A DNA stretch of 63,336 bases, filler included, from Folioceros fuciformis (GCA_049999805.1; 16 parts of 16 records of this genome joined end to end with filler, not necessarily neighbours in it); one strand, 5' to 3'. Positions 4,086 through 60,331 are shown, counted from the first letter of the whole stretch. Program-made: numbers and translations. The notes: generated by a model not told the origin, from the sequence alone.

Positions 4086-4272
4086 TGAGAATGTCCACGA
4101 AGGAACTTAGGCAGCGAGAGCAGGCCGTGTTTGTACAAAACTGTATGAGTTAATTGACAAAGTATCTCATATGTTATTTATACTAAACCCTAATATCCAA
4201 AAGGTTGCAAAATATATATATATTTAACCCTAACCATAGCTAACTAAAGCTGTCCAGGGTTAATATTTGACA
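4086..4272 (-). mobile_element. 3' LTR of a minus-strand copia; PPT at 4273-4281
   Basis: Minus strand reads AAGAGGGAG|TGTCAAATA...TTCTCA; cuts the host protease at 4085. Confidence 0.85.
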
Positions 4273-4400
4273 CTCCCTCTTAAGCAGGACAAGCTTAAGT
4301 AGGTACATGTGAGATATAATGCCCAACAACCGAACTCAAACGCACTAGGACACAACAAACTCGAGCGCTCCCGGACACAGCTGAAAAACATGAGCCAGCG

Positions 4401-4637
4401 ATGGCGATTCAACTGGACACTGCCCTTGCTTATATGCTGGCAGCCTTCTTCACAATCACATGTCTGGCAATTGCTGTTGTGACGAAGATGCGAAGGGGGC
4501 ATCTGTATGCCAACAGGGCGAGTAGTGGCAGACGGCGTGCAAGGAGAAGGATGGAGTGCGGACAAGAATCCAGCTCTCAATCCACTGTCCAGGAGCCTGA
4601 AGTTGTGACTGATGGGGAGGAGCATCGAGAGAGATAG
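4401..4637 (+). CDS. 78-aa antisense ORF in a copia 3' region: hydrophobic segment then Arg-rich tail
   Basis: MAIQLDTALAYMLAAFFTITCLAIAVVTKMRRG...GRRRARRR; starts about 120 nt inside the PPT. Confidence 0.55.
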   Translation: MAIQLDTALAYMLAAFFTITCLAIAVVTKMRRGHLYANRASSGRRRARRRMECGQESSSQSTVQEPEVVTDGEEHRER

Positions 4638-4929
4638 ACTGGCTTGGTCGTTCGTCTTAGGGAGGCAGTGAAGCTCTCGGGCCAGATCAAGGAAGATGGC
4701 GAGTACGGAGGTTGAGGTGTCAAGCAGCCAGGCGATAAGGTAATCGTGGGGCTTCATCCGCATGTTGATGATCATTTCTACTGTGCAGAGCATACTGTAA
4801 CTATTGCTTAACAAAAACCAATGTTGTGTGTTTGTCACAATTCTTATAACCTGGCGGCAAAGAGGCTGTTGATCTAACATCGATATCAGGGAGCAAGGGC
4901 TCCCACCCCCCCTCTCCCACCAGATAAGT

Positions 4930-6399
4930 CTACAGTTGCTCAAACCAGCTGATCCTTGAAATATACTGAGAAATCCTGTAGACCAAGTCCTGCCATGTGT
5001 AAATAGTGCTTATATTTAAGCAGGGCTTGGTTAGAATGTCTGCAGTATTCTCCTCTGTGTTCACATAATCAACCTTCACAACTCCCCGTTCAACTACATC
5101 CCTGATGTAGTGATGCTGTATCTCGATATGCTTCGTCCTTGCGTGAAAACGAGGGTTTGCAACCAGGGCAAGTGCTAACATGTTGTCACACAAGAGTGGG
5201 GTTGCTGCTGTCTGCTGTTGACCAAGGTCTTGTAGGAAGGTACGTTCCCATTCTGCCTCTTTCGAGGCATCTGTCAAGCTTTTATATTCAGCTTATGTCG
5301 ATGATAAAGCAATTGATGTCTGCTTTTTGCAGCTCCAACTTACAGCCGCAAATGCGAATAGAAAACAGTATGTAGATAAACTCTTGCGGCTGTCATTGTC
5401 TGATGCCCAATCAGCATCAGTAAATCCCCTTAAAGTAAGCCGTCCTTGTCCACTGCTTTTATAGACAAGTTCATAGTACTGGGTCCTTTTCAAATATCTA
5501 AATACTCGTTTAGCTGCTACCCAGCGAGCTCGACCAGGTCTCTTTAGAAATTGTGACAGGGTGCTAACAGAATATTGTATATCTGGACGAGTCCAATTGA
5601 CAACAAACAGAAGACTGCCTACAGCATGACGGTAGGGGATTTCTACCATCTCTTTCTGTTCTTCAGCAGACTGAGGACATTGTAGGCTTGTAAGTTTAGC
5701 TCCTAGAGCAGATGGAGTAGATGCTGGGCGTGCCTCATTGAGCTTGAATTTATTCAGCAGCTGTTGGATATATTTATTCTGGTGTATGATGAGAAGTCCT
5801 TCAGATCTGACTCGAAGGAGCTGTATCCCTAAACAGAGTTTGAGCTCCCCTATATCTTTCATGTCGTACTTCGTGCTTAGCATCTCCTTTACGCTTGCTA
5901 ATAGCTTGTTATCATTAGTAGCCATGAGTACATCATCTACATAGAGGGCGAGTATAAGAAAGCTTGCGCCTTTTACCAGTCTATAGACATTACTGTCTGC
6001 AGCACTCTGCATGAAGGATTGGCTCAAAAGGAACACATGGATGTTCAGGTACCACACTCTGCTGCTTTGCTTTAAGCCATATATTGTCTTTAACAATTTG
6101 CAGACCTTGTTCGGGTATGCTTTATCCTCATATCCCTATGGCTATGTCATGTACAGATCCTCGTCAAGTGATCCATAGAGGAAGGCAGTATTTACATCCA
6201 TTTGATAAAGCTCTAGGTCAAATTCAGCAGCAAGGGCCAAAATCATGCGGATGGACTGTGTTCTCACGACTGGAGAAAATGTTTCTTGGTAGTCGAGACC
6301 CTCAACCTGTGTGAAGCCACGTGCCACCAACCTGGCCTTATACCTAGCAATGTCTCCTTGGGCATTGAGTTTGAGTTTGAACACCCATTTGCAAGATAT
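4930..6399 (-). pseudogene. pol: Copia RT-RNase H
   Basis: [31 protein letters not shown]; stops and frameshifts. Confidence 0.95.
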
Positions 6400-6499
6400 N
6401 NNNNNNNNNNNNNNNNNNNNNNNNNNNNNNNNNNNNNNNNNNNTTAATTAATTAANNNNNNNNNNNNNNNNNNNNNNNNNNNNNNNNNNNNNNNNNNNN
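6400..6499. other. Artificial contig spacer, first of 15
   Basis: 44N-TTAATTAATTAA-44N with stops in all six frames; other linkers start at 14547, 16854, 22531, 28555, 31314, 37455, 38571, 45539, 51701, 53855, 55941, 58267, 60376, 61834. Confidence 0.98.
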
Positions 6500-9400
6500 T
6501 TTTATCATTGGATTTATATAGACTTGGTATCTAATATACCTAAGTTCTTCATGTGTTTAGTATGTAACTCCCGACCAAGGGACTTTGTAAGTAAATCAGT
6601 TGAATTATCTTGAGTTTGTATATAATGTATATCTATGGTTTTATTTTCCAACATTTCTTTAATGTAATGGTATTCGACACCTATATGTTTAGTTCTAGAA
6701 TGGAATATAGGATTTCTGGCTAATGCTATGGCTCCTTGGCTGTCACTATATAAGGGTGTAGGGTTGTCTTGTGTATGATTAAGCTCACTTAAGGCTAACC
6801 TACTTCATACAATATCCTTGGCAACTGAGGTTCGTACTCTATACTCTGACTCAATGCTTAACAAGGCTATGGTCATTTATTTCTCACTTGACCATGAAAT
6901 AGGGGCTTTGCATAGCATAAGTATATAGCCAGATACTGATCGCCGTGTGTCAGGGTCGCCAACATAGTCGGCATCAGCATATGCTGTTAATATTGGTTTA
7001 TGCATACTCAGTGTATGTTGATAAACAAATCCTGTATTCATCGTGCTTTTGAGATACCGAAATATTCTTTTAACAGATGTCCAATGTTCACGTCCAGGAT
7101 TTTCTAGAAATTGTGAACAAACACTAACTTCAAAGTATATCAGGCCTAGTGAAGTTGCTCAAATATATATGTGTGCCAACAGCGTGTCAATAAGGTACTA
7201 TTGACATTTGTAACTTGTCTGCATCTATATGAGGGCACATGTTTTATGTGAGTCTTATCCCACTAGCAAAAGGAGTGGGAGCAGGTTTAGCGTCTCCTAA
7301 TCCAAATTTGATTAAGCTTTCCTTAATATATTTTGTTTGAAGAATGCTTAAAGTTCTACGGATGCTTTAATTTCAGCTAGGAGAGAGGATGAAGAGGAAG
7401 CCATAAATACGTCATCAACGTAAAGTAAGAGGTAAATTATCTCTTTTCCAGAGATTAATATATACATACAAGGATCTGCCTTGCTTTGTTGAAAACCTGG
7501 TTTCATAAGTTTAACATGTATTATGGTATTCCATTCCTTGCCAGATTGCTTCAATCCATAAATACATTTGATAAGCTTACACACCAAATTTTCTTTGCCT
7601 TTAACCTCATAACCCTTAGGTTGTCTCATGTATATTTCCTCTCGTAGATGCCCATGCAAATATGTTGTCTTCATATCCATCATATGGAGTTCAAGATCCT
7701 ACTTGGCAGTTAAAGCAAATATCATTCGGAGGCTGGCAAATTTGGCTACAGGGGCATAAGTGGCCCAAGGTACATAGTCTAGGCCAGGAATTTGTGTGAA
7801 ACCTATGGCTACTAGACGTGCCTTATATCTTTCAATAGAACCATCTCCTTTTCTTTTGATTTTGAATACCTATTTGCTTGTCACTATCTTCCTACCCTTG
7901 GGGGGTTTGAGTAGTTCCCATGTAGAATTCTTAATTAGGGAATCATATTCGGAATCTACTGCTGCATTCCATAAGCCCTTTTCAGGGGATGAGAAGGCTT
8001 GTTTAAGAGTAGTGGGTTCTTCTGGGGTCAACATTTGTCTAATATACGGCCTCGGAAGTAGCTAGGTATCCTAAAGGAGGCTCTTTCCACCCAGCAGGAC
8101 CAAGAATGGTTGGTCTGGTTCTGAGATTATATTCTAACATGGTCTAATCCAGATGGGCGGATTCCACAAAGCCCGTTTTGCGCTTTTTAAATTTGTCTTG
8201 ATCCGCACCCCATATCTACCTTTGATCTCTTTTCACAAACAATAAGACCACCGACATGTATGCGTATATTATTTATTCACCAAATATCAATAAAACCAAA
8301 ATAAATGCAGTACACATTGTGAGTCTTCTACGTGAAACTTGATATTTAACAATTGAAACATATGGTGCGTCGGTCAACCGGCGCATAAGCTATTCAAAAT
8401 ACTTCATGTTCTAGTAAAGGATGAGTTCAAGTTAAGTCTCACACAAAAACTGGGTCATCCTTGTTGGCCTCGGAACTGTATACAATACACCGGTGCGCCG
8501 GTCACTGGGGTCTGGATTTTGTACATTTGGTCTACCGGCGCACTCCCGCCGGCTTGGGGCTCTAGTGCGTCGATAGACCGGCGCACTCACGCCGATTCGC
8601 GCTCCAATGCACCAGTAGACCGGCCCATTCGAGCAGCCGGCTAGGGTAGAAGTGCACCGGTAGACTAGCGCACTCGGGCAGAAGTGCGCCAGTAGACCGG
8701 CGCACTCGGGTAGTGCAGGTCCTAATTCGTCCTCCTGCATGACAGGTCCATCAAAGGGAAGTCGAAGAGTAGGATCAGGAAAGTCCACAATATAGTCACT
8801 AGTATCAAAACAACATTCAAAAGAAGAACATTCAGGTTCGACATCCTCAAATGAAGGGTGAGCAGGCAAAACATTTCCCACTGAAGATGAAAATAGGGAA
8901 TGTTCATAAAAAGTGACACTACGAGAATAAAGAAGCCTCTTAGTGGAACGATCAAACAATTTATAGCCCTTGATTCCTTCCGAATAACCAATAAAGGTAT
9001 ATTTTACAGGCTTTGGATCAAACTTCCTTGTTAATGCTTTAGGGACAAAAACATATGCCAGAGATCCAAAAATGCGGAGATGTTCTATAGAGGGCTTTTT
9101 GCCTATAAAGGCTTCATATGGTGTCATACCTTGGACTGCTAAGGTGGGCAATCGGTTCATGAGATATGTGGTTGTGAGGAGTGTCTCAGCCCAATAAACC
9201 TTGGGTAACTTTGCTTGATTTAACAGGCAGCCAATAATCTCTTAAAGGCGTAGATTCTTATTTTCAGCTACGCCATTTTGTTGAGGAGTATAAACAACAG
9301 TAAGTTGTTGAGCAATACCGCGAAGGCGACAAAAATCCTCAAATTGATTGGAAGTAAACTCGCCACCATTGTCAGAACGTAAGGTTTTGAGTTTCTTCTC

Positions 9401-11258
9401 GGTTAATCTCTCAGCCCATACCCTATAGTCTTGGAAGTAACGATAAACATCTCCTTTGTAACTTAAGATATAGGTGAGAGTAAACTGAGAATAGCCGTTG
9501 ATGAAGGTCATAAAGAATCTGCTACCACTGAAGGAAGGTGTAGAGATAGGAAGGTGTAGAGATAGGGCCACAAATGTCTGTACAAACAAGCTCTAAAGGA
9601 CATTTCGCCCTCTGTGGGGAGATGTTCTTAAAATGGGCTTGATGTCTTTTGGTAATGACACAAGTCTCACACCATGAGAGGTGTTGAATGTGAGAGAGGT
9701 AGGGTGTACGATATAAATTTCCTGCCTTAGACATTTGTACTAATTTTTGGCTATTTGGATGACCAAGATGACAGTGCCATAACATAGTATGGCTAGGTGG
9801 TACAGAATTAGAGGATGCTACATTGATGGAATGTGTAGGACCCACTTTAACTGAGAGTTTGTATAACCCTTCTTCTAGTGTGCCTATGCAGATGAAATGT
9901 GACTTATTAGAAGTATATGAAATAAGGCAACTATCTGCATGAAGTATGACTTGCATACTATGTTCATAACATAAACTAGAGGCAGAGACTAGATTCTTAC
10001 GCATGGCTGGTACATGAAGAACGTGACATAAGTGTAGAGTCTGACATGTGGAACATCTGAGGACAACTAAACCTACGCCAGCTATTGGGAGGTTGTGATC
10101 ATCACCCAAGAGGACAAACTAGTGTCCCATGGTTGGGGAGTAGGACTCAAAGGAGTCTTTGTCATAGCAGATGTGTGAGGTAGCTCCACTGTCAAGGTAC
10201 CATAATTTATTAGTAGGCTAGGAGGATGCCAGACATACTGTAAGGGCAGAAGGGGTTGAGGAAGATGGTTTCTTCACAGCAACATTCGCAGCAAGTGAGG
10301 CCTCTTTCCTAGGCTCACCATTTTTCTTCCTTCTGCAGTCCTTCTCCATGTGATTTGGGATTCTGCACAAATTACAAATAATTCGTATCTTCTTATTACC
10401 TCTTGCAGGTGTGGAAGAAGACGAAGGGGCTCCCTTGAAGAAGCCTTGAGAGGAAGTAGTAGGCCTTGTGGGAAGAGATCCTTTGGTGTGGTTTTGACAG
10501 CGACCTCTTCCTCTGCCTCTTCCTATGAACATCACCTGCTGCCGGCTAGCTCGTGAGTCTTGACGTCGACTAGGCTCCTCCTATATCAATGCGGCTATCA
10601 ACTCATTTACACTTATATCCAAGGTTTTGTGCATATCCATATTCTTCTGTGCTGTTCTCAAGACAACGTTCTGAGTTGTCACACATGATCTATAGGAGGC
10701 TGGAAGAGAGGATAATAATGCAACAAAGCATGTTAACTGGGACAACTTGGAGTTGGAGGCAGCTTCAAGTTGGGATCTTGCCATTCGAAATGGACTAATA
10801 TGGTGTTCGATGGTATCAAATTCCCTCATTTTAAGGTTATGGAAATTACGAGTAGCAGTCACCAAACCCATAACATCCTTGGAGGAGTATAATTGTGCGA
10901 GGTGGTCCCACATTTCCTTGGAGGATCCTGCCTCGCTAATTTGCCGTACCATATGAAGAGAAAGACCACTTATAATGATGTCCTAGGCTCTCTCATCTTT
11001 CGCATCCCAAATACGTTTTTCATTAGTACTCCATACAGGGCGCTCTAATGCTCCACTGACGATGTCCCATAGGTCACAGTTGCGCAATACTCCTCTCATT
11101 CGCAGGCGCCAGACGTCATAGTCCTTGCCATTGAATATATCCTTCTCCTTGAAGCTGTCTCCAAAATTATTCACGACCATTGATTTGGTTTCAGTAGAAT
11201 CTTTGTCATTGTTGATTTCTACGTCAAGTTGCTCTCCCTCATCTTCGCGAGCAACCAT
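6500..11258 (-). pseudogene. gag-pol: Decayed copia gag-pol (gag-PR-INT-RT-RH)
   Basis: FKEKDIFNGKDYDVWRLRM, CNLCRIPNHMEKDC, YLDSGATSHIC, LWHCHLGH, LRSDNGGEF, LYVDD in copia order; many stops. Confidence 0.93.
8141..8712. mobile_element. Insertion into copia pol; probable DNA-transposon end with AGACCGGCGCACTC repeats
   Basis: Starts GGTCTAATCCAGATGGGCGGATTCC; near-identical inverted terminus ends at 47431. Confidence 0.55.
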
Positions 11259-11270
11259 TGCAGATGATGT

Positions 11271-11813
11271 TTAAAGGCCATGACTACGTCGTGTGCGTGG
11301 TGTTTTGGAGGAGATCACACTAGACGATGTTCCAATCATATAAAAAATAGAATATGCATGTAAGAATGTTGAATTCTGCAAAGAACTTTTAGACATTTTA
11401 GTATCTAAGTCTTCAATGCATTGTGCTAAGTGATTTAAGGCTTGGGTCAAAGATGACAATTGTCTACTCATGACCTTATGTCTAAGTTCAGAATCTACTT
11501 TGATAGATTTAAGAAGAGGTTGCAAGGAATTTGTGCTATCAATCACAATTGGACCAGCACGTAAATTGGGAATATGTTGAAGTGCTAAAACTAGAGATTC
11601 TACTTGTGATAAACTAAAAAAAGTAAGTAAATCACTCTTAGCAATCTCAATCAATTCTCCTTGATTCTTTGATTTTATAAGGATTGCACCAATAAAATTA
11701 CCAATAAATTTAGAATCTCTTTCAATTGGATCTATAAATTTAGTGGAATAGTTATAATTTGATGCATTCTCCCTTCATGCAGCCTTCAATCTCCTCCTAC
11801 TTCCTTGCCCCAT
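11271..11813 (-). CDS. ORF0 upstream of copia gag, 181 codons with one internal TGA, coiled-coil-like
   Basis: MGQGSRRRLKAA*RENAS...SRQLSSLTQALNHLAQCIEDLDTKM; lies between PBS and gag, stop 12 nt before gag ATG at 11258. Confidence 0.6.
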
Positions 11814-11984: not shown

Positions 11985-11996
11985 GCTCTGATACCA
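11985..11996 (-). promoter_or_regulatory. PBS, tRNA-iMet
   Basis: Reverse complement TGGTATCAGAGC adjoining the LTR. Confidence 0.95.
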
Positions 11997-17649: not shown

Positions 17650-17695
17650 CTCCCCCTTAAACGGAGCGCACTGTTAGCGTGGCGAAGTTGCAGCC

Positions 17696-17860
17696 ATGAC
17701 GGGATTCTTCAGCCTGAGTCTCGCAGTCTGTGCAATCGTGATTGCTGTGTCCCTCCTGTATCAACACATAAGAGAACAACAGAGAAGGCGCAGAAAGAGA
17801 GCGGGCCGCACCACCTATCAGCTGCCTTTAAGCAGCTGGAGTGAAATAACGACGGACTAG
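17696..17860 (+). CDS. 54-aa antisense micropeptide, transmembrane-like segment plus polybasic patch; below the ORF-track cutoff
   Basis: GCAGCCATGA context; MTGFFSLSLAVCAIVIAVSLLYQHIREQQRRRRKRAGRTTYQLPLSSWSEITTD*. Confidence 0.6.
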   Translation: MTGFFSLSLAVCAIVIAVSLLYQHIREQQRRRRKRAGRTTYQLPLSSWSEITTD

Positions 17861-18089
17861 ACATGGCGTCTCGCAGGCTGGGAGTGTTGACTGTGGATTG
17901 CATTTTCGGCGAAGAGAGTGCCTGAAAGGCGCCAGCAACTGACTGAAGAAAAGGTGCTGGCAGAGCAACTGAAAAGAGCAGGCGCCTGTCCACTTCTGCC
18001 TGAAAAGTGACCATAGGCACCATAAGCTGCAGTATGCGATTAGGACTGGACTGTGGAGCTTCATCCGCATCAGCTGTGGCTTGGATATG

Positions 18090-21000
18090 TCAGGATTGAG
18101 ACGGAGAACATGGTGCAACACCCATCGCCTCCATGAATTGATAATGTTTACTCGCGGGCAGGTACTTGGTCAACAAGTCTGCAGTGTTGTAATCTGTTGA
18201 GACATGCTGAAGTCGCACCACCTTCTGTTCCACTTGTTGACGAATAAAATGATGCTGCACCTCGATGTGCTTTGTTCGGGCATGGAAACGCGGGTTTGCT
18301 GTCATACTGATAGTGGAAACATTGTCGCAGTGGATAAGAGTGGGCTTTAGCTGTGGAAAACCAAGACCCTGCAGGAAGGCACGCTCCCAAATTGCTTCTT
18401 TGGCAGCTTCAGTTAGGGCTTTGTACTCTGCCTCAGTAGAGGACAGAGAAACGGAAGCCTGCTTCTTTGAGCTCCAGTGAACAACAGCATTTGAGAGAAT
18501 GAAACAGTAGGCTGATATGCTTTGTCTGGCGTCAGGGTTTGTTGCCCAATCAGCATCGGCATAACCACACACGGTAGGTGTTGTATCTCGCCCCCTGAAG
18601 CATAAGCCGTGATTCATTGTGCCTTTAAGATAGCGCAAGATACGCTTGACGGCTGCCCAGTGAACTTGGCCAGGATTGTCAAGGAACTGAGAAACCGAGC
18701 TAACAGCGTATTGAATATCAGGGCGGGTCCAACAGCTGATGTAATTCAGACAGCCAACAGCGTGACGATATGGAAACTGAGACATAGCCTGGCGCTCATG
18801 ATCATCTTGTGGACAGTCATCAGCAGAAAGCTTGAGACCTGGAACACCAGGGGTGGAAACGGGCTTGGCAGAATCAAGGTGAAAACGGCAGAGAGTTTCG
18901 GCAATATATTTGCTTTGGTGAAGCATGAGAGTCTGATCCTCCAAGTTGCGGACAAGTTGAACCCCAAGAACAAAGGTAAGAGGGCCGATGTCCTTCATGT
19001 CAAACTGTTGGTGCAGCATGCCCTTGACCCAGGCAAGTAACTCAGAGTTGTTTGATGCCAGAATAGCGTCATCAACGTACAAGGCCAGTATGACGAGATG
19101 ACCTCCTTTGGTATATATATACACGTTGGCATCACCAGGGTTCTGCACGAAACCAATGGACTGCAAATACTTGTCGATGGTTTTGTACCATTCCCGGGCG
19201 GATTGCTTAAGACCGTAAATGGTCTTCTTTAAACGGCACACCCAGGTAGGATGGTCTGGAGCAATAAAACCTTCAGGTTGCTGCATATAGATGTCCTCGT
19301 CAAGCTCACCGTACAGAAAGGCGGTACACACGTCCATCTGTTGCAAGTCCCAAGCATTGGCAGCGGCGAGGGCAAGTATCATTCTGATGGACTGGGTTTT
19401 GACGACAGGACTGAAGGTCTCTTGAAAATCAACACCGGGAATCTGAGTAAAACCCCGAGCCACAAGACGGGATTTGTATCTAGCAATCTCCCCTTTTTCA
19501 TTCAGTTTATGCTTGAAAACCCACTTACAACTGACAGTTTTGCGGCCAACAGGCAGAGGACAGAGATCCCAGGTACCATTCTTGATAAGCGAGTCATACT
19601 CATCCTTGATGGATGGAATCCAGTGTGCTTTGTCTGGGCCAGTAACAGCTTCAGTGTAAGTGCGGGGCTCAGGCTTGAGAAAAGGAAACTCAGAGTTATT
19701 AGTCTTGAGAGACATGCCAGCCCTAGGACGCCGATAGTCCACAGACTGATACGGAGGCTCCTTCCAGTGAGCAGGGGGCACTCTCTCACGAGTGGGGTAC
19801 CGGTGTTCAGGCGGAGGAGCAGGAAGGGGTACATCATCATCATCAGTCACAGCAAGTTCTGGTAAAAGGTTACTGTCAGCTGAGTCGTCTGAGTGATGAG
19901 AAGCAACATCCTGCAAATCTGCTGACCCGGGAATTGACACGTCTCCTGCAGAAGCTGGATTCGCTTGATCTGCTGCAACGGAGCCAGTGTCGGTGGCAGG
20001 AATAACGTCAGGGACACCGGCAGCAGCAGCAGGAGCAACGGGTTGTGCCACCGGAAACTGCAAGAGACCAGGGTCAGGTTGGACCACTGAGCTGACATCA
20101 ATAAAATCATCCTGGGGGAACTCAGACAGGTCCTCTTCTGCACTGGCATCTGCATCGGTAAGATTCGCTGGTACAGAAAGTGTTGATTCAAAATAAGGTT
20201 TGGCAGGACTGATGAGTTCTCGAAAGGTAACACTCCTAGCGAATTGTGCTGACTGGGTGAGTGAATCATACAACTTGTAAGCTTTCGCTTCTTCACCATA
20301 CCCAACAAACAGCAGGGGTTTAGCCCGTGCATCTAACTTTCTTCGCTTTTCAGCAGGGATATATGCATAAGCAGGAGAGCCAAATACTCGAAGATGAAGT
20401 AAACTCGGCTTCCTTTGCCATATAACCTCATAAGGTGTTTTGCCATCCACAGCACTTGTCAAGAGACGATTAAGGATGTAAGTCGTAGTCACCACTGCTT
20501 CTGCCCAAAATGCTTTGCTGAGACCTGACCATTCCAGCATGCTGCGCGTCATGCCTAACAGGGTCTGGTTGCGGCGCTCAGCAACGCCATTCTGCTGCTG
20601 GGTATAAGGGACTATGAGCTGACGGACAATCCCTCGGTCAAGAAGAAACTGGTTGAAGTTGCCATGTGTAAATTCTGTACCATTATCTGAACGCAAGCAC
20701 TTCAGCTGGCGACCTGTTTGTTTCTGAACCATCTGCAGCCATTCCTGGAAGAAAGCAAAGGTGTCTGACTTCAAACGCATCGGGTAGGTCCATGAATACC
20801 TACTGAAGTCATCCGTGAGTGTAAGATAATACAAGGCACCACCTAGAGAAGGTATGTGAATCTTCCCAGAGATGTCTGCGTGCACGAGGTCCAGAATCTG
20901 AGAAGCTCTATATGCTGTCTGTTTGGGAAAGGGCACTTCCTTTTGCTTTGCTATCACACAAGCATCGCACAAAGGCAAGTCCTTGAAACATTTGGGCAGT

Positions 21001-22463
21001 GGTTCCCTGTAACAGGTTAGGTTGGACATCTTGATGAGCTTATCCCGATTGGCATGTCCTAGACGTGCGTGCCAGAGACTGGCTTGAGCAGCTTGGGTGG
21101 ACAGAGTGACATTGGCAGTGTCCACAGGTATGGCTTTTAAATCAAGTTGATATAAATCGTGCACTAAGTGTCCTGTAGCAACTACCTGACCTCTCTCCCC
21201 TCTCTTCATAAGCTCACAGCGTGAAGAAGTGAAGAGCAGATCGAAAGTGCGTAAGGACATAAGTTGGCTAACAGAAAGCAGATGTTTAGCCATGCGGGGC
21301 ACGTACAGGACGTTATCCAAGTGAAGGATGGAACCATCATGCAACATAAAGCGACAGGACCCAGAGCCTTCTATCTGCAGACCTGTACGGGTAAGTTCAT
21401 CACCCAAAAGCACTTTATCTGAAGTGGTAGATGACTGAAAATTGCTGATCAGGGACTTATCTTTGCAAATATGAGATGTAGCTCCTGAATCTAAATACCA
21501 GCACTGTGGGGAAGGATGTGCAGAAGACACAAGACAGACTGTCATGATGACAGGTGGTTTACTTGTGATCGACTGAGAAAGCCGATCCTTGGCAGCCAAG
21601 TGTGCCTCAGCCTGTTTCAAAGGCTTCTCAGCTTTACGAGGCTCGCCAGATTTTTTCTTCCGACATTCTCTCTCCTAGTGGCCCTGTATACCACACCAGT
21701 TACAGGCGCCAGTACGTTTCACAGAAATGGTCTTCGAAGAACCTGCACCTCCACTCGAGGTAGGTTTCCTCCGGTTTTGCTTTACTTGAGTCGAAAGGAC
21801 CTCGTCTGTCCTGGTTCGTCCACCATGTAAAGTAGAAGTAGCCCTGCTTTGTTCTTCCTGTAGCAAGGCACCAATAACATCAGCCAGGTTGATGTTGGTA
21901 GGCTGACCTGCGGCCCGAGCAGCATCAGCAGCGCGAACTGTGGCACCGTAGCTGGAGACGAAAGTCTGATAGCTGGGGGGCAGACTTGTCAACAACTGAC
22001 TAACTGCATCAAGCTCCGGGAATTGAGAACCCAAGTTGATGAGTTGGGCACGAAATTGGCGAAAACGGATGACAAAAGGGGACACCTTTTCACCCTCCTT
22101 AAGACGCAGAGAGAAGAGCTCTCCTCGAACGGCACACATGGTAAGAATATTTTTGGCTTCATAAGTCTGAGTCAGGAGAGTCCAAATCTCGTCAGCCTTG
22201 GTGAGGAAGGCAACGTCTGCAAGCAGTGTCTCATCCAGTCCGCTAATTAAGACGGCGCGAGCGACATAATTCAGGTTTGCCCATTTGTCCTTTTCCTCTT
22301 GTGTGGCAGATTGTGGAGGTTCCTTAAGCGTGCCACTAACAACTCCCCAAACGTGTCTCGCTTGCAGGGCAGCTGTCATGCGCACCTTCCAACCTTCGAA
22401 TTTCATCCCATTAAATCGATCCCGCTCCTTGAACTCAAAAGAGTAGGATGGCTGAGGAATCAC
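18090..22463 (-). mobile_element. gag-pol: Near-intact copia gag-pol, one frame of about 1458 codons with a single stop
   Basis: gag, CCHC, WYLDSGATSH, integrase, YVDD and RNase H all in frame; only visible lesion is TAG at 21675-21677. Confidence 0.97.
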
Positions 22464-22675
22464 AGGTACGGCAGGGAGCGGGAGGGNNNNNNNNNNNNNN
22501 NNNNNNNNNNNNNNNNNNNNNNNNNNNNNNTTAATTAATTAANNNNNNNNNNNNNNNNNNNNNNNNNNNNNNNNNNNNNNNNNNNNCCCCCCAGCTGATG
22601 TGAATGGCTAGCAAAAAGGGAAAAGAAGCCCGATGGAACTAGGGATTGCTGCCATCAGCCTGCTGTAGGGACAGC

Positions 22676-24392: not shown

Positions 24393-24770
24393 TGTCAATA
24401 GGATCGACTCCAATCTATGTGCAAGTGTAGGAGAGGAGAGGAGAGAAGAGAGGGTGGTATTGGTAGTCACAACCAAAAACAATACACATCACCACTATCT
24501 TACTATGGAGGTCCGAGGTCTCCATTTAAGTAGTACATTTAGGGCTACACAACTTCCAAGTTCAATATGAAATAATCTACACTATCCTAAGTTCATTAAT
24601 AACTAAAACTAGTTTAGTATGAACCCAACCGGGATAACTAACACCACATGAGTTTAGCTTATATAGAGCTCGATAACTCAACACTCCCCCTCGAGCTCAA
24701 CATAGCATTTGTACGCCTAACATAGCTCGGAATTTCTTCAGCTTCTCTGCTCCCATAGGCTTAGTAAATA
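24393..24770 (-). mobile_element. Copia 3' LTR (24393-24683), PPT and RNase H tip
   Basis: TGTCAA...TCAACA; near-identical to 53268-53560. Confidence 0.9.
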
Positions 24771-39777: not shown

Positions 39778-40616
39778 ACAAGACTTATGAAAATTGCGTG
39801 AGCGTTCCTCAGCCAGTAGTGCTCCTATATAACCTCTTCAAGTGTAATAGTAGGAAACTAGCCTACTGCAGCTGCCTTAACTACAGCGTGTATTGTGGCA
39901 TTCTGACTACCAACAAAGTTGCTGTAGCTCTTAGGTAGAGAGGCAAGAAGGCTTACTGCTGCTTGTACCTCTATAAGAACAGTACCACAATATGCTAGGT
40001 TTGCTCTATACGTCCTGTATTTGTTGATGTAGGCCTCCACTGGCTCATTTTCCTTCATCCTCAAATTGAAGAAATCCCTGTAAGCATGGACAAGAGATGT
40101 AGAGCTCTTGTCATGATAAATAGACTCAAACACCTTCCACACATCATTAGAAGTCTTGGCTCAGATGGTGTGGGGCATCATGGTTCGATCTAAGGCAGCA
40201 ATGAGTATAGATTGGGCACACCTATCCTTTCGCTCCCAGGCTAGGATTTTGTCTGCTGATCTAGTAGGTACAGAGACCTTTGGTTCTGTTCCATCGACTA
40301 TGGAAAATACCTCATTCTCCTCAAAGATATGACTGAGTCTCATGGCCCAGATTTGATAGTCCATTCCATTGAACCTATCTTTATTTTGAAAATCTATTTT
40401 CGAAGGGACCATGGCAGATGCAGGAACAACAGGCATTTGTGCTGCCATGCTTGATGAGTTGAGGATGGATTGAAGGACTGAATGAAGTTGTAATTGTCTA
40501 GCTCTCTCCAAAAGATTGGAAGTAGAGAAATCCCATACAGGGTATGAGAAAGAATCAGCAAACACGAAGGAGATGTCATAAACATCATCATCATCTTTAT
40601 GATCTGGTGCTTGCAT
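39778..40616 (-). pseudogene. gag: Copia gag
   Basis: FQNKDRFNGMDYQIWAMRL, LRMKENE, LLASLPKSY; one stop. Confidence 0.9.
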
Positions 40617-40630: not shown

Positions 40631-41116
40631 TCACAACATAGTGGAGGACTTTAAGCCAGAAGAAGAGTTCAAACAGGAGAAATTTGAGGAAAGATAATTT
40701 TCACATAAAATGTTTAGTGAAAGAATTCCCTCACAGAGCTTCTCGATGAGGAGGTCACTTGACTCCACACACCTTCTCAAGCTGACGAGCTGACAAGAAA
40801 TGACAAGTTCTGTGTCTTTCTTTCGATGGAGAGTCAAGTCCTTCCGAAGATCGTAGACTCCCTTGCCGTGATGATGTAAAGTCGTATCAGACTTGCGAGG
40901 ATGAGAATTGCAGCAACCATTAAAGGAAGAAATTGATATTCATTCCCGAGTTCTTCTGGTTGAATGAATGTCCCTTCGTGTCAACAAAGGCTGTCGTCTG
41001 ACTGATTGAGGGACGTTGTGCTCCTCAAATCTGCAATCAAGACAGGATCAAGGAAATGAGTCTCTTTGTCTGTTGATTATCCTGGGAAACGGTGCTGTGA
41101 GTCTGCGCCTAGGCAT
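40631..41116 (-). CDS. ORF0 upstream of gag, 162 codons with two internal TGA
   Basis: MPRRRLTAP...SCQLVSLRRCVESSDLLIEKL; ATG about 52 nt after the PBS, stop 14 nt before the ATG at 40616. Confidence 0.5.
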
Positions 41117-41168: not shown

Positions 41169-41404
41169 GCTCTGATACCATAATAAAATCTATACTATGG
41201 ATCATACAACACAGGTGCGGAGGCATGGAATGGAAGATTGAGAATGTAGGCAAGACAAGATGCAAGAGATCACCAGCATAAAAGAGAATAATTAAGGAGG
41301 GCATAGCATTGTGCTATATACCCAAAAAACATAAGCAGTTGTTAAACCGTCATAACTAAAATATGAAACTAACTCTTTAACCTAGGTTAGAAGTCTTAAC
41401 TTCA
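41169..41404 (-). mobile_element. PBS (41169-41180) and 5' LTR of a copia
   Basis: Reverse complement TGGTATCAGAGC; outer LTR edge approximate. Confidence 0.75.
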
Positions 41405-43100: not shown

Positions 43101-43337
43101 AGTAGTTAGGGTTTGGGCCGTCTCATGGCAGAGGCCTAGAGTAGTTAGATCTGTCTAGGGCTGGTGAGCAGCTGCCACAAACATGGTTGGGTCATGCTTT
43201 GGGGACATTTGCCATAACCACACGATAGTAGGGTGCTAGGGCTGCAATACCTAGGTCGTTCTAGCAGCTCCTTGTGTGTTGACACCATAGTCAGTAATCG
43301 GACACCTTGATCAGGCTTAGGTGTTTCAAGGCTTAGG

Positions 43338-44938
43338 CGCTTCGTAAGAGCACAAGACTCACATAGTGGAAGTGGCACAAGAGGACCTATCTGCCCATGC
43401 TGGTACAAATCACTTACAGCTAGTTTTTGTAGCTTAACAGAGTGTGGATGACCTAGTCGTAAATGCCAAAGTTTTGACTTCTCTATCTGCTGTACAGACA
43501 CTTGAGAAGATCCTTTAGTCAAATGGGCATGTGGCTTACGACTATCTGTATGAAGACAAAACAAGTCTTTCTCTGAAGACCCAAAGGCAAGTATTTTCTG
43601 ATGATTAAAGGCATCTAACACTTGACATTTTGTTTGAGTAAAAAGAATGTGACAGTGATTATCAGAATTCAACTTCCTTACGGAAATTAAGTTACGTGTC
43701 ATGTCTGGTACGTAGTACACATCATGTAACACTAATACATTTCCTGATGGTACTGACAGGTCTATGATACCAATACCAGGAGATACAAGGGATCTATCAT
43801 CCCCCAGGTATACGTACTGATCCTTGACTGATCTGTACGTTTGAAATGCCTTTTTGTCCAAGCATATGTGGGCAGTAGCCCCTGTGTCTAAATACCAGTC
43901 TATGGTATGCTGAACCTTTGGATGTGTTGACAAACAGGCAGGTGACAAGAACGAGCTTGTAGCAAAGACTGTTGTACCAACTGTGAGGGCAGAGGGGGTT
44001 GGTTGCTTCTTAATAACCACGTGAGTCTCAGCGCTGGTTGAACCCTCCTTGCGAGGAACACCAGCCTGCTTTTTCCTACACTCACACTCCCAGTGACCAG
44101 GTAACTTGCACCAGTTGCAATTTCCTGTCCTTTTGGGTTTTCTTTGACTGGCTCCACGTCCTTGTGAGCCACCTCCTCTTGAGGTACTGCCCCCACCCCT
44201 ATTGTAGGGTCTTCCTCCTCCACGTCCTCGGTTAGAAGTGAAGAGGGCTTGCTGTTTACTAGTGCGTCTGCTATGTGTTTTGCTGGCTTCCTCTTGCAAT
44301 AAAGCTCCCACTAACTCTGCAAAGCTTGTTTCAAGTAGGGTTACACCTGAAGCCTTTGCAAGCTTTTCAATCTGGAGCTTGGAGGCATTGAAGGATGTCA
44401 CAAAGTGTGACCAAGAATCTGGTAAGGATATTAGGAAGTATAGTGTAAGTATATCATCCTTTAAGGTCTCATTTGTAGCACTTTCCAGTCTTGAGACAAG
44501 TGTCCTGAAATGTCCAAGGTGCTTTTCAATTGAGTCTCCTTCCCTCATTTTACATAATTGTAAATTCCTTAATGCTGTCATTTGACTTGTCTGGTTGCTG
44601 CCTGAATACAGGTCTTGAAGTCTTATCCATATTTCAGCCGAGGTTGTGCATCCTGAAGTCTGTCTTAACATTTCTAAAGTAAGACCACTTCGGATGAGGT
44701 ACATGGCTGCTTCATCCTTTGCATCCCATGTATCCTTTGCCTTTTTCTCAGCTGTTGAAGGTTGTGCAGGAGGTGGAGGCATTAATGGGACCGGTTCTTC
44801 CCCAGTAACCACCTTCCACAATTTCCTATTTTGTAAGGCTCCTTTCATGCGGATTACCCATATATCGTAATCCTGCCCACCAAACCTATCCTTTTCCTTA
44901 AACCCATCCCCACCTAAAGTTGAGGGATCAGTGGCCAT
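43338..44938 (-). pseudogene. gag-pol: Copia gag-protease-pre-integrase, open frame, 3' truncated
   Basis: FKEKDRFGGQDYDIW, CNWCKLPGHWECEC, WYLDTGATAH, LWHLRLGH...CESC. Confidence 0.95.
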
Positions 44939-45051: not shown

Positions 45052-45492
45052 TCAAAGAATATTGACAACATTGTGAAGTCTGTCAGCTGCAGGTACAACT
45101 ACTGACTCCTCTTGTGTTCTGTTTGTTATTTTCTGATTTCTAATCTCCCACTTGTTGAAGGCATACACAGAACAGGATGGGCAGGAGTTTGGACTTCCAA
45201 ACATATGTTTCTTACTTGTCTTCTTGGCGTGCTTACAGGCTACACCCCTGAATGCAGGGTTAGCAAGCAAGGCTGGCTTCAACAACGTAAGAAGTTTGAA
45301 ATCCAAGTGACCTATCTGTTCTTGTAAGTCTCTCAAATCTACACTATTTGCAGAAACCCTTTGCAGAATACTGCTAAAGCGTGCATCAACGTGCTGCTGG
45401 TGTGACTCAATTCTGTTTACTAACTGTGTAACGCTGGTTGTAGGTGCGGCGTGAGTTGTAAGGAAACCTCTGGGATGACCATTCCCATCAAA
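45052..45492 (-). CDS. ORF0 upstream of gag, at least 147 codons, open to the gap
   Basis: ...ARFSSILQRVSANSVDLRDLQEQIGHLDFKLL...; no stop from the contig edge to 45052. Confidence 0.6.
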   Translation of the reverse strand, partial: FDGNGHPRGFLTTHAAPTTSVTQLVNRIESHQQHVDARFSSILQRVSANSVDLRDLQEQIGHLDFKLLTLLKPALLANPAFRGVACKHAKKTSKKHMFGSPNSCPSCSVYAFNKWEIRNQKITNRTQEESVVVPAADRLHNVVNIL

Positions 45493-51756: not shown

Positions 51757-51956
51757 GTCCTACGCCTGATCGGAGCTGGAGGGGAGCCCTCGAATCCGTC
51801 ATCGAGTCGATCAAGTCCGACCCTCCATCCACAGCAGCAAGGAACCCCATCGCTCCTTCGTGGGAACGAAACCCAATGTCTCAACGACAGTGGGATAAGT
51901 GTGGCCACTAAAGGTGGGACCCTTCGGCAATCAGTGCCCGGGGTTTTGCCTCCACA
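51757..51956 (-). mobile_element. TGTGG-family LTR 5' end inserted in a gypsy integrase
   Basis: Terminus cuts IEHFSKWVEAVAL. Confidence 0.85.
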
Positions 51957-53267: not shown

Positions 53268-53810
53268 TGTCAATAGGATCGACTCCAGTCTACGTGCAAG
53301 TGTAGGAGAGGAGAGGAGAGAAGAGAGGGTGGTATTGGTGATCACAACCATGAAAACAATACACATCACCACTGTCTTACTATGGAGGTCCAAGGTCTCC
53401 ATTTAAGTAGTACATTTAGGGCTACACAACTTCCAGGTTCAATATGGGATAATCTACACTATCCTAAGTTCACTAATAACTAGAACTAGTCTAGTATGAA
53501 CCCAACTGGGATAACTAACACCACATGAGTTTAGCTCATATAGAGCTCGATAACTCAACACTCCCCCTCGAGCTCAACATAGCATCCGTACGCCTAACAT
53601 AGCTCGGAATTTCTTCAGCTTCTCTGCTCCCATTGGCTTAGTAAATATATCGGCTATCTGCTCGTCTGTGTTGACATACACAAGATCAATAGCTCCAGAT
53701 AAAATCCGTTCGCGAAGAAAATGATAATGTATTTCAATGTGTTTTGTCCTGGCATGAAACACCGGGTTTCGCGCCAACTGTATGCTGCTAAGATTGTCAC
53801 AGTAGATAAC
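53268..53810 (-). mobile_element. Copia 3' LTR (53268-53560), PPT and RNase H end
   Basis: RTKHIEIHYH...ADIFTK; pol stop abuts GAGGGGGAG|TGTTGAG. Confidence 0.92.
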
Positions 53811-55996: not shown

Positions 55997-57015
55997 ATCT
56001 AGCCTTGTATATTGATGACCTGATTCTGTCATGTAACAGTTCAGAGTTCATTAGCAAGGTAAACAACTTCTTAGCAACTAAATTTAAGATGACAAATGTA
56101 GGACCCTTGCGAAACTGTTTAGGAATCCATATACAAAGAGATAGAAGTAAGAGGACTTTAAGTCTAACTCAACCTAGGTACATTATGGAGAGTGTGGAAC
56201 AGCTAGGTCTGAAAGATGCTAAGCCTGCTTCTACCCCACTCTCAACAGGACTCAAATTAAGTAAGAGTATGAATCCTAGCACATAAGCAGACAAGGATGC
56301 TATGTCTAAGATACCTTACAGAAAAGCTGTTGGTAAGTTAATTTAGGCTACCAATACTGCACGTCTAGAAATAGCTTATGCCACCAGTGTCTTGTCACAG
56401 TATCTTGAAAACCCTGGACAGGAACATTAAACATGTTTAAAACGTGTGGAAAGAAATTTGAAAGGCACATTCAACAAGGGCATATAGTATAAGGGGAAGC
56501 ATGGTGAAGAACTTCCCTTGGCAGTATACACTGATTCAGACTATGCCGGGGAGGTTGACACCAGAAAGTCTATGTCTAGCTATGTGGTTAGCATTGATGG
56601 AGGACCTATCAGCTAGTCTAGTAAAAAGCAACCTACAGTTGCACTATCCAGCACTGAAGCAGAATACAGAGTACTTACAGCAACTGCTAAAGAGGTGATT
56701 TGGTGCAAATTATTGTTTAAGGAACTTGGCCTATCCTTTCCTACCTGCACACAAATCAGGACTGATAACCAAGGGGCGATAGTGTTAGCTCAAAACCCAG
56801 TCTTCCATTCACGCACAAAACATGTTGAAGTTGAGTATCATTTTATAAGAGACCTAGTCTCAGCTGGGTAGGTCACATTAGAGTTCATCCATATATGGCA
56901 TAATCCTGCAGATGTCCTTACAAAGCCACTGAGTAAAGACCTACATGAAAAGCATGTCCAAGCTCTAGGTCTAGGGGAGTATGCGAGCTCCTCTATTAAA
57001 AACTCTTATCTGTAG
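55997..57015 (+). pseudogene. pol: Copia RT-RNase H
   Basis: LYIDD, YTDSDYAG, ALSSTEAEY, RTKHVEVEYH. Confidence 0.93.
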
Positions 57016-58192: not shown

Positions 58193-58210
58193 TCTAGTAG
58201 ATATGGCAAC

Positions 58211-58222
58211 AAGTAGGAGTGT
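58211..58222 (+). promoter_or_regulatory. Probable PPT and first bases of the 3' LTR
   Basis: AAGTAGGAG|TGT at the contig end; same pattern as other PPTs in the window. Confidence 0.65.
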
Positions 58223-58322
58223 NNNNNNNNNNNNNNNNNNNNNNNNNNNNNNNNNNNNNNNNNNNNTTAATTAATTAANNNNNNNNNNNNNNNNNNNNNN
58301 NNNNNNNNNNNNNNNNNNNNNN

Positions 58323-58745
58323 ACTCTACCTTGCTCTAGGGATCATAATAGGATTGTGCACAAGAGTCAAAGGCAACCTTTTCTTCGGAACTCATGTAGG
58401 AATTACATAAGGGATACAAGGAAAAATTTTGCTAGGGACTCAAGTGTCCACAATTCAGATGATTCAGCGCTTTGTTGGAAGGTTTCTGCTGCGATTCATG
58501 CATCCCTTGCTTCTCTCATAGATCTAAAGACTGTGGTGAATGGAATTGTGGAGTCTCTTCTTCGCTTAAACGCAGAGGTGTGCAGGCAATTCTTAGCAGT
58601 TGAAGATCTTCTAGATAAAAATTTTGCGGCACACTCCTCACGGCTAGGGCGGGCGCCTGATCTTTCTACCAGAGACCCATTGGTGGCCATGTATTTGCCA
58701 TCGTTGAAGCCATCTCGCCCACGGCGGGATGTTCCTCTCCTCTGA
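58323..58745 (+). CDS. ORF0 upstream of gag, at least 141 codons, open from the gap
   Basis: ...HASLASLIDLKTVVNGIVESLLRLNAEV... Confidence 0.55.
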   Translation, partial: TLPCSRDHNRIVHKSQRQPFLRNSCRNYIRDTRKNFARDSSVHNSDDSALCWKVSAAIHASLASLIDLKTVVNGIVESLLRLNAEVCRQFLAVEDLLDKNFAAHSSRLGRAPDLSTRDPLVAMYLPSLKPSRPRRDVPLL

Positions 58746-59142
58746 AGCAGTTTGAGATCTGAAGGGGTGCAGGCACTGGCAGGACGACGCAACCCCTAGT
58801 TTTTTTGCTGTTCGCCGCTGGGCGCTCCCCTGCTCTTGTGTGGTTTACAGATCTGGATCGGCGCCTGGAAGGTTGCCCGTGAGGATTCTTCTTCCACATG
58901 TGCTTAGAGTTTGTGCCCGTTTTCCCCGTGTCGCGGTGTGCATCGAGTTGCGGCAACTTAGCGTTTCGGCCTTCCGTTTAAGTTGGCGGTTCGTTGAGTT
59001 GGGCCTTTTCCTTAAAAAAAAAACTTTTTTAGAAGCTCCTTTTTAATTAACTTCAATTTGAGTTTCTTAGAAAAAGGACTTTAGAATAGTTTTTTTTAAG
59101 TCTTCTCTAGAGGTAGCCTACCCATCTTTTGCTAGATTGTGT

Positions 59143-60331
59143 ATGTCGGCCTCATCATCCAGCAGCAAGTCAGACTTACCAGTTGAGCTTGAGCCTGTAG
59201 ATGCACATGCTTTCACTGATTCTGAAGTAGAGGAACAACTTAGACTTCATACTCAAATTACTCGGTCACTTCAAGAGTTGGCACGGTTACGGGCTAGTCC
59301 TTCACATCCACAGCCCTTACAATCTAGAATCCCAACTGTCCCTTCTTCTCAAATCATGGCTACTGCTACTGGTGCTTCTTTTGGAGCTGCTTATTCAGGT
59401 GAATTTAAGGAGAAGGACCGTTTTGATGGCAAGGCTTCCCGTTATGAGAGCTGGCGTGCCCGGATGAAAGCCTTCTTGGATGCCAGAGACGTTTGGGAGT
59501 ATGCTGATGGTTCCCTTCTAAAACCAGATCCTACAGCACCAGGTGTTACTCAAGACGTGGTAGATAAGTGGAAGAAGGGGAATAAAATAGCCTTCGCTAT
59601 TTTACTTTCAGGTCTAGATGAAACAACTGTGATAGAGGTAGAGTCATTACCTACAGCAGCTGATGTTTGGAAGAAACTTCAAGAAACATACCAGGTGCAG
59701 AACATTCCCACCCTTGTGCATGCAAGGAATGAGTTCTATGGCCTGAAGCTGTGGGATGGAGAACCAGTGGGACCACACATTGTGAAGTTTCGCCATTTGC
59801 GTTCTCAACTCGCGGCGCTTGGTTGCACTATGACCGAAGTGGATGCAGTTGCTCAATTGCTTTCTAGCTTACCAGCTTCTTATCAGAACTTCGTGTCAAG
59901 TCAAAATACCTCCATTCAATCATCTTATCAAGTTGTGAGTGCTGGTAAACCTTCCCTTATAACGTTAAATGACTTGATTGGGGCTCTCCTGCAAGAGGAA
60001 CAGAGTCGCCATAAGTCAGGACCTTCGTCTCGCCTCCGGGGAGAGAAGGTGCTGTACGTTGCAAAAGGAAAAGGACCAGGACAGTTCAATAAGAGTAAGA
60101 AAGGGGGAAGCTCATCTGTCCCATCTTCTTCTCTTCCTGTTAAGCGCCAGGGTAATTGCAATTGGTGTGTTGTCTCACCTCAAGCAAGGAGAATTCATCT
60201 ATGTGGTTTGTGGATTCCGGATCTACTTCACATATTTGCAACAACAGGAAGTTGTTTTCTAAGTTCAGCTATCAATCACCTTTTCATATTGTTTATGTGG
60301 GTGATTCTAGAGGACTGGAAGTGGAGGGTAG
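59143..60331 (+). pseudogene. gag: Copia gag-protease with a deletion through the zinc knuckle
   Basis: FKEKDRFDG...WRARM; GNCNWC followed closely by out-of-frame WFVDSGSTSHIC. Confidence 0.92.

Follow-up and report, generated by a model that had tools for sequence, protein, structure and literature searches.

Several Ty1/copia leaders in a Folioceros fuciformis DNA window carry an additional sense-strand open frame with a coiled-coil-like heptad segment

Introduction

The window analysed here, 63,336 nucleotides (nt) of DNA from Folioceros fuciformis (GCA_049999805.1), is not one locus; it consists of 16 unlinked contigs (c1–c16) of 1.0–8.0 kb each. On the contigs lie parts of six or more diverged Ty1/copia families, together with gypsy fragments and a gene for a PPR-DYW protein, and the host, judged by gene content, is a land plant, with a repeat-rich genome. 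Fifteen identical spacers, each made up of 44 Ns, a 12-base all-frame stop and another 44 Ns, join the contigs (6400–6499, 14503–14602 and 13 more), and because the contigs are unlinked, it is unsafe to connect features across these spacers. An original prediction, made from the sequence, had taken positions 4086–60331 as one stretch bearing a copia lineage with extra genes on both sides of gag-pol; that span crosses 14 mutually unlinked contigs and cannot be treated as a unit. Copia gag or pol pieces were located on c1, c2, c4, c5, c8, c9, c11, c13 and c14 (tblastn against the c4 element).

We were concerned with two regions of these elements: the leader, upstream of gag, in which same-strand open reading frames (ORFs) here called ORF0 are found, and the 3′ end, between pol and the 3′ long terminal repeat (LTR), where antisense ORFs had been proposed. 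The analysis supports the conclusion that several copia leaders hold a same-strand extra frame with a coiled-coil-like heptad segment, beyond what chance would give.

Results

Open frames in copia leaders

Five sense leader frames, those of the c2, c9a, c9b, c14 and c1b elements, were listed before any test was applied (Table 1). For each leader, the longest sense frame was compared with those of 500 dinucleotide-preserving shuffles. The length of the c2 frame was reached by none of the 500 shuffles and that of the c9b frame by one, while the c14 frame, reached by 17 of 500, was marginal. In a control set of 66 window-strands, each 650 nt of unannotated DNA, one gave P ≤ 0.005 and eight gave P ≤ 0.05. 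Measured against that single case in 66, the c2 and c9b frames are clearly beyond chance. Each leader has just one of its three sense frames open, and its antisense frames are short. The expectation of an ORF0 of 140–180 codons in all four visible leaders was borne out as far as the presence of sense frames in c2, c9a, c9b and c14 is concerned, but the length range fits only three of the four, the c9a frame having 102 codons.

The position of ORF0 is most clearly seen in the two leaders that retain a primer-binding site (PBS). In c2, the PBS is followed by 210 nt, ORF0, its stop codon, 12 nt and the gag ATG; in c9a the order is the same, with 229 nt between PBS and ORF0, and 14 nt between the stop codon and the gag ATG. 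The corresponding stop-to-ATG distance is 113 nt in c9b and 397 nt in c14. Where a PBS is visible, it lies 700–800 nt from the conserved gag motif. Four sites in the window (2528+, 11996−, 41180− and 54113−) match the complement of the initiator tRNA-Met 3′ end exactly, the PBS type that the survey of Neumann et al. (2019; PMC6317226) describes as prevailing in most copia groups. The depth in run X1 was 115–162 over c9b ORF0 and 124–398 over c9b gag, and this likeness places the stretch within a multi-copy element; over the c9a leader and gag N-terminus (40230 to 41374) the depth in that run was 12–59. At least four copia families carry an unusually long leader, each with a sense open frame.

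Heptad signal and codon usage of ORF0

The heptad score used here is the hydrophobic fraction at positions a and d minus that elsewhere, taken over a proline-free 35-residue scoring window, and it was calculated for all 201 stop-to-stop ORFs of at least 80 amino acids (aa) in the DNA analysed. Among these, the c9b frame ranked first, c2 second, c14 third, c9a tenth and c1b 36th. When the window length and residue set were varied in nine combinations, c9b and c2 stayed within ranks 1–4 and c9a within 6–10, while c14 moved between 3 and 33. Residue shuffles of three ORF0s reached the observed score in 0 of 300, 0 of 300 and 1 of 300 cases. The heptad segments span residues 102–136 in c2, 21–73 in c9b and 52–97 in c14, and no tandem repeat was found beneath them. 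The ORF0s therefore have the a/d periodicity of a coiled coil, with helices predicted at a predicted local distance difference test score (pLDDT) below 50.

Codon usage was scored, with stop codons removed, against the window's own copia genes. The scores of the c2, c14 and c9b frames were 0.108, 0.088 and 0.071, respectively, as compared with a mean of −0.015 (standard deviation 0.057) for ORFs antisense to genes. These values hint at coding without being decisive.

Two candidate relationships were rejected. An alignment of the c2 and c14 ORF0 tails made by eye ([IV]EDL, a basic cluster and then the stop codon) had a Smith–Waterman score below the shuffle mean, and the idea that ORF0 is a diverged duplicate of gag found no gag family at E ≤ 1. 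Two of 28 pairs did score above their shuffles (c2 with c1b, and c9b with the c14 gag N-terminus); these alignments are unconvincing. In Protein Atlas, the best scores, 0.88 for the c4 antisense peptide described below and 0.77 for c9b ORF0, were below the level at which a match counts as more than a mere lead.

Gag and pol of the copia elements

A gag start of the form K-E-x-D-R-F...W..R-M is present in all six gags for which it had been cited (c1a, c2, c4, c9a, c9b and c14), as originally stated. It falls within the Pfam DUF4219/Retrotran_gag_3 region of copia gags, and is therefore an ordinary copia family trait and not the marker of a special lineage. The statement that most of these gags have a CNWC-type knuckle is likewise correct, in that four of the six carry the knuckle start. 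The knuckle is complete in two of them, c1a and c9b; in c4 an in-frame stop follows the histidine, and in c14 the reading frame is lost after the knuckle start. In c2, CNLC replaces CNWC, and the c9a gag ends before the knuckle, cut by the very high-copy repeat described below.

Identity to the c4 gag was 29–43%, the c14 gag being the nearest at 43%, and the longer pol alignments to the c4 pol gave 38–56%, with c1 and c4 the most similar pair of pols (56%). These values are compatible with several lineages, and with the gags so far apart and on unlinked contigs, the proposal of a single copia lineage is unsupported. The c4 element belongs to Ty1/copia: its gag matches PF14223 (Retrotran_gag_2), and its pol contains Pol_BBD (59–140), gag_pre-integrs (173–244), rve (263–357) and RVT_2 (699–943). 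A protein-database search with the c14 gag returned one match only, at 25% identity. No locus was confirmed when the c9b gag-pol ORF and a four-gag alignment were searched against metagenome contigs, or when the four-gag alignment was searched against viral contigs.

Three observations concern sequencing runs over c9. A putative RNA run gave no cover over c9b ORF0, which speaks neither for nor against the frame. Within c9b gag (44098–44611), a contig of that run joins 44098–44337 to 44420–44611; the join has GT..AG ends on the + strand, antisense to gag, and the contig, at 85% likeness, may come from a diverged copy. The differences of run X3 on c9 are mostly C>T (221) and G>A (131), those of X1 and X2 being more balanced, and run X3 may consist of converted or damaged DNA.

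The 3′ ends and their antisense ORFs

The distance from the pol stop codon to the polypurine tract (PPT) is 658 nt in c1, 431 nt in c4 and about 140 nt in c13 (likely PPT), and there is no such interval in c11. The c5 element has its own complete pol C-terminus and, about 650 nt further on, a second pol end, PPT and LTR start that are 95% identical to those of c11 (24684–25440); with two pol C-termini, the second of c11 type, the c5 3′ end is chimeric or nested. Gypsy-type ribonuclease H (RNase H) fragments lie directly past the copia 3′ LTRs of c11 (52485–53003, −) and c5 (24216–24488, −), and a foreign integrase core lies in the same position in c4 (16911–17171, +). These abutting pieces limit the LTRs to about 200–550 nt and indicate nested or abutting insertions.

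Antisense ORFs with an ATG and at least 30 aa were listed at the five 3′ ends of c1, c4, c5, c11 and c13. In 1000 shuffles, the length of the longest antisense ATG-ORF was reached in 13.5% of cases for c1, 23.3% for c4, 58.9% for c5 and 62.6% for c13, so antisense ORF lengths are at chance (P 0.13–0.63). No membrane-like antisense ORF was found at the c11 and c13 3′ ends. An antisense ORF close to the PPT had been claimed for four of five 3′ ends; the claim holds for c1 and c4, the only membrane-like cases (120 and 38 nt from the PPT), and not for the others.

In the c1 and c4 antisense peptides the 19-residue hydropathy peaks at 2.37 and 2.50, a poly-Arg run comes next in each, and both are predicted to be small single-pass membrane peptides, a feature that does not imply expression. 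They are the only two of 255 ATG-ORFs of at least 40 aa in which a hydropathy of 2.2 or more goes with a poly-basic run just behind it, the poly-basic criterion having been chosen after the two peptides had been seen. Aligned with each other, they scored above 498 of 500 residue shuffles, for which a block composition in like order could suffice. No alignment was found between the c1 and c4 3′ untranslated regions (UTRs) outside the PPT. We conclude that chance accounts for the antisense 3′ ORFs of most elements, and that a transmembrane-plus-poly-Arg peptide is, at best, limited to the related c1/c4 pair.

Sense frames are also present downstream of pol. In c1, 221 of the 222 codons of the interval from pol to PPT are open, which occurred in none of 1000 shuffles; in c5, 128 codons are open (P 0.08). 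The post-pol frames of c1, c4 and c5 have no similarity to one another and no Pfam family, and the codon usage of those of c1 and c5 is not coding-like.

Other features of the window

A very high-copy repeat is common to c2, c9, c10, c11 and c15. Its summed contig depth is 2×10^4 to 1.3×10^5, as compared with about 100 for adjoining copia DNA (two DNA runs). Both the c9a gag and, on c2, a second copia integrase fragment are cut short by this repeat, in whose frames no Pfam family was found. Scans of the whole window with Rfam and for tRNAs detected nothing.

The coding DNA of the PPR protein on c7 contains a 306-nt tandem unit in 4.3 copies (76% match; 32640–33948), and this repeat also yields an antisense frame of 361 codons with no family match. 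On c3 (15823–16809, +) and c10 (47759–48968, −) there are two copies, 88.5% identical over 967 nt, of a stretch whose frame would encode a strongly charged coiled-coil protein, with a tandem repeat of 27 nt behind it. Among 123 unannotated frames, the upstream one on c3 (15823–16119) has the top codon-usage score, and its heptad rank is 5 of 201. This coiled-coil frame matched no Pfam family significantly and does not adjoin a copia gag. Another retroelement family is represented on c9 (41810–42901, +) and c15 (60806–61402, −) by frames resembling gag, with two CCHC zinc knuckles and no Pfam match. The stretch of c9 that includes its frame, 41730–43269, is the part of that contig best covered by contigs of the putative RNA run.

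Table 1. Positions of the elements, frames and repeats in the window (RT, reverse transcriptase)
Feature	Contig or element	Coordinates	Strand	Description
PBS	c2	11985..11996	−	Exact tRNA-Met match; 210 nt upstream of ORF0 frame
ORF0	c2	11274..11774	−	167 codons, stop-free; in gag frame, one TAA between
Gag-pol	c2	6535..11270	−	Degenerate copia, many breaks; gag ATG 12 nt after ORF0 stop
PBS	c9a	41169..41180	−	Exact match
ORF0	c9a	40634..40939	−	102 codons, stop-free; gag ATG at 40616
Gag	c9a	39828..40616	−	79-residue N-terminal extension; cut at ~39780 by high-copy repeat
ORF0	c9b	45055..45492	−	At least 146 codons; open at contig end
Gag-protease-preintegrase ORF	c9b	43148..44938	−	Unbroken; 597 aa from ATG
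ORF0	c14	58323..58742	+	At least 140 codons; open at contig start
Gag ORF	c14	59143..60330	+	82-residue N-terminal extension ahead of conserved motif
Leader frame	c1b	2931-3254		108 codons; in phase with gag, one TGA between
Copia gag and pol	c4	18093..22484	−	Near-intact; gag 269 aa and pol 1194 aa, single in-frame stop (zinc knuckle) between
RT-RNase H portion of copia pol	c1	4940..6399	−	56% identical to c4; frameshift near C-terminus
Copia pol RNase H end	c13	55999..57015	+	
Copia pol C-terminus	c11	53561..53810	−	PPT directly at stop codon, so no 3′ UTR
Second pol C-terminal piece and PPT	c5	24684..24771	−	Of c11 type
Likely PPT	c1	4273..4281	−	Followed by TGT... LTR start
Likely PPT	c4	17650..17658	−	Followed by TGT... 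LTR start
Likely PPT	c5	24684-24692	−	Followed by TGT... LTR start
Likely PPT	c11	53561-53569	−	Followed by TGT... LTR start
Antisense ORF	c1	4401..4637	+	78 aa; N-terminal hydrophobic helix, then poly-Arg; 120 nt inside PPT
Antisense ORF	c4	17696..17860	+	54 aa; N-terminal hydrophobic helix, then poly-Arg/Lys; 38 nt inside PPT
Antisense ORF	c5	25106-25228	+	40 aa; weakly hydrophobic; 414 nt from PPT
Post-pol sense frame	c1	4263..5009	−	249 codons stop to stop; spans pol-stop-to-PPT interval
Post-pol frame	c4	17712..18089	−	126 codons; in phase directly past pol stop; P 0.09
PPR protein	c7	31751-35356	−	Intact, 1202 aa; E and DYW deaminase domains (Pfam)
Very high-copy repeat	c9	38627-39771		Truncates c9a gag
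Very high-copy repeat, further sites		13609-14502, 45595-45728, 51757-51965, 60432-60552		

Discussion

ORF0 is most likely either a fast-evolving small accessory ORF or a former extension of Gag, and its presence in three to four diverged copia families exceeds what chance would give. We give an even chance to the more specific proposal that it is a present or recent, fast-evolving 5′ extra ORF, encoding a small protein in which a heptad helix of 35–50 residues is followed by a short basic cluster. Because the ORF0 stop codon lies 12–14 nt before the gag ATG in c2 and c9a, we propose that ribosomes may reach gag after ORF0 by reinitiating or by leaky scanning. The ORF0 protein might self-associate through its helix, its basic patch could bind nucleic acid or mediate nuclear entry, and it might act as an accessory in particle assembly or RNA handling.

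A number of observations weigh against reading ORF0 as a protein-coding gene of these elements. Each element is represented by one copy only. The length of the c9a frame is not significant (reached by 89 of 500 shuffles, P 0.18), and the c1b candidate is negative (221 of 500, P 0.44; heptad rank 36). The two complete ORF0s have no ATG near the 5′ end: the c2 frame comes to its first ATG at codon 102, at the start of the heptad segment, from which the product would have 66 residues, and in the c9a frame none precedes codon 101. The c2 and c9a elements are both decayed copies. The 5′ ends of the c9b and c14 frames run off their contigs, no PBS was found in the visible DNA upstream of the gag ATG (556 nt in c9b and 820 nt in c14), and the placement of these two frames inside an element is based on depth and on the absence of an intervening PBS. 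AlphaFold helices from single sequences coincide with the heptad segments, in folds that are poor (pLDDT 36 and 46), and the basic cluster was noticed post hoc.

The ORF0s also stand without relatives, including one another. Neither blastp nor tblastx of the leaders found them mutually similar, and none of the Smith–Waterman scores for pairs of the c2, c9b and c14 ORF0s was above shuffles (z < 0.4). The heptad motif is therefore a common periodicity and not a common sequence; of the aligned heptad motif in the original prediction, the heptad stands, at ranks 1, 2, 3 and 10 of 201, and the alignment does not. There were no matches to c2 ORF0 among 1.84 billion representatives (phmmer) or to the c9b and c14 ORF0s in word-index searches, and no significant Pfam family in ten extra frames. 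Relatives of the gags are nearly absent from the same databases, and the empty ORF0 searches accordingly carry little weight.

Two other accounts of the leaders have to be set beside an extra ORF. In one, which we consider unlikely, ORF0 is what remains of a long N-terminal extension of Gag, the stop codons and frame offsets having arisen by decay. The c2 frame would fit this, as it is in the gag frame with a single TAA between and many breaks interrupt the gag-pol of that element; the c1b frame is also in phase with its gag, with one TGA. The c14 and c9a gags still have N-terminal extensions of 82 and 79 residues with an amphipathic helix, and a further frame of 96 codons lies just upstream of the c14 gag and in its phase. 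However, the c9b element has an unbroken gag-pol frame of 606 codons, with ORF0 in another frame and 113 nt from the gag ATG; the c14 and c9a ORF0s are also out of the gag frame, and in c1a and c9b the gag ATG is only 18–22 residues before the conserved motif. The other account holds that the leaders are non-coding, forming structured RNA for packaging, dimerisation or regulation, and that open frames and heptads come from composition or chance. We judge it, too, to be improbable. The missing 5′ start codons of the complete ORF0s, the lack of ORF0–ORF0 similarity, relatives, family or confident fold, and the eight of 66 control window-strands at P ≤ 0.05, which make a modest excess common in this DNA, would all be expected. 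Against it are the two frames with P ≤ 0.002, as compared with one in 66 in the control, and the high heptad ranks of frames that were chosen beforehand, with no tandem repeats beneath them; the restriction of openness to one sense frame per leader, with short antisense frames, also argues for coding.

The layout of the original prediction, LTR-ORF0-gag-pol-(antisense membrane peptide)-LTR in one copia lineage with both extras as functional genes, we regard as very unlikely. The open-frame, heptad and placement evidence for ORF0 speaks for its 5′ half. For the other half, the c1 and c4 antisense ORFs alone (two of 255) unite a hydrophobic helix with a poly-basic run, they lie just inside the PPT of the two closest pols (56%) and they beat 498 of 500 shuffles against each other; moreover, the c14 gag, which has an ORF0, is closest (43%) to the c4 gag, which has an antisense peptide. 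Nevertheless, ORF0 and the antisense peptide do not occur together in any copy in the window, nor does any single lineage show both, and the layout as such is not sustained. None of the four 3′ UTRs tested has antisense ORFs longer than chance gives, c11 has no 3′ UTR, that of c13 is about 140 nt without a hydrophobic ORF, and the chimeric c5 end has just a weak one, 414 nt from the PPT. The poly-basic criterion was post hoc, the excess over shuffles is explicable by block composition, the c1 and c4 3′ UTRs are unalignable outside the PPT, and in c1 the improbably open frame is the sense one, opposite the peptide. Quite as doubtful, in our view, is a bolder version in which diverged copia families of this plant would have in common an ancient, very fast-evolving leader gene for a small protein of the coiled-coil-plus-basic kind, translationally coupled to gag, and in which this gene would together with the c1/c4 antisense transmembrane/poly-Arg peptide, read from just within the PPT, make up a plant copia counterpart of retroviral accessory and antisense proteins.

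Extra ORFs in copia elements are already known. Neumann et al. (2019; PMC6317226) found such ORFs, counted from 250 codons upwards, in 582 Ty1/copia and 3372 Ty3/gypsy elements. Those of copia form 45 similarity groups, and the classes used distinguish 5′ from 3′ location and forward from reverse direction; the earlier statement that copia elements normally encode only gag-pol is, in view of those 582 elements, too strong. As that survey describes them, these ORFs are highly heterogeneous and mostly without conserved domains, their function is doubted, and the sole copia pattern stressed is a sense 3′ ORF in 74% of SIRE elements. The frames in the window are similar in lying outside gag-pol in copia elements and in being heterogeneous and poor in domains. 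They differ in length: with 102–167 codons (two of them cut by contig ends) they are below the 250-codon cut-off. The visible 102, 167, at least 146 and at least 140 codons therefore leave them outside the survey's class of forward upstream ORFs (eORF-5′F, at least 250 codons), which also excludes frames that are part of the polyprotein in other copies or lie in tandem repeats; the c2 frame is in phase with gag. Our literature search, which was limited and did not span the whole literature, found no short coiled-coil ORF described in copia leaders. The ORF0s of the window are thus a probable variant of the extra ORFs of LTR retrotransposons, and a two-gene system is undemonstrated.

By analogy of description, the closest functional counterpart of ORF0 is the 5′ ORF of the sunflower Tekay element 13-2, for which PMC11728184 reports a product of about 400 aa in 500 of 523 family members, with no known domain, well-predicted alpha-helical coils, long disorder and a basic nuclear localisation signal. 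Both are sense orphan ORFs between the 5′ LTR and gag, with coils and a basic signal. They differ in that the Tekay ORF belongs to Ty3/gypsy, is about 400 aa long and is family-wide, whereas ORF0 is in copia and shorter, the two being likened by description only. Further 5′ additional ORFs of Tekay chromoviruses are reportedly the ORF0 of rice Retrosat-2 and those of RIRE3 and RIRE8.

For the 3′ ends, the env-like sense ORF that SIRE (Sirevirus/Maximus) has between pol and the 3′ LTR may be compared with the sense frame of c1 (249 codons) and with the 126 codons after pol in c4. The post-pol frames of c1, c4 and c5 are, however, mutually dissimilar, with codon usage in c1 and c5 that is not coding-like, and the 3′ UTR is short in c13 and absent from c11. 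Extra ORFs lie mostly between pol and the 3′ LTR according to the account in PMC7264820, in sense (env-like) or antisense orientation, the latter in Grande, RIRE2, Retand and PvRetro13, Ty3/gypsy elements whose antisense ORFs reportedly occur in most copies and show conservation across species. The c1 and c4 antisense ORFs agree with these gypsy ORFs in position and orientation; they differ from them in having 78 and 54 codons, a chance length, and in occurring at two of five 3′ ends. Among retroviruses, ASP of human immunodeficiency virus type 1 and HBZ of human T-lymphotropic virus type 1 are read from the strand opposite gag-pol, near the 3′ LTR, and ASP is hydrophobic and membrane-associated. 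Any likeness of the c1 and c4 antisense ORFs to these proteins would be a functional analogy only, with neither sequence nor phylogeny linking them.

Copia elements are generally regarded as carrying gag-pol alone, and published surveys count extra ORFs from 250 codons up. If the leader frames are neutral, the window holds an ordinary set of decayed copia fragments. If ORF0 is under selection in several diverged copia families, it would represent a class of small accessory proteins that length cut-offs have missed, with candidate roles in particle assembly, RNA chaperoning, nuclear entry or the evasion of silencing. The tight spacing between the ORF0 stop codon and the gag ATG would then allow coupled translation to be tested in a plant retrotransposon.

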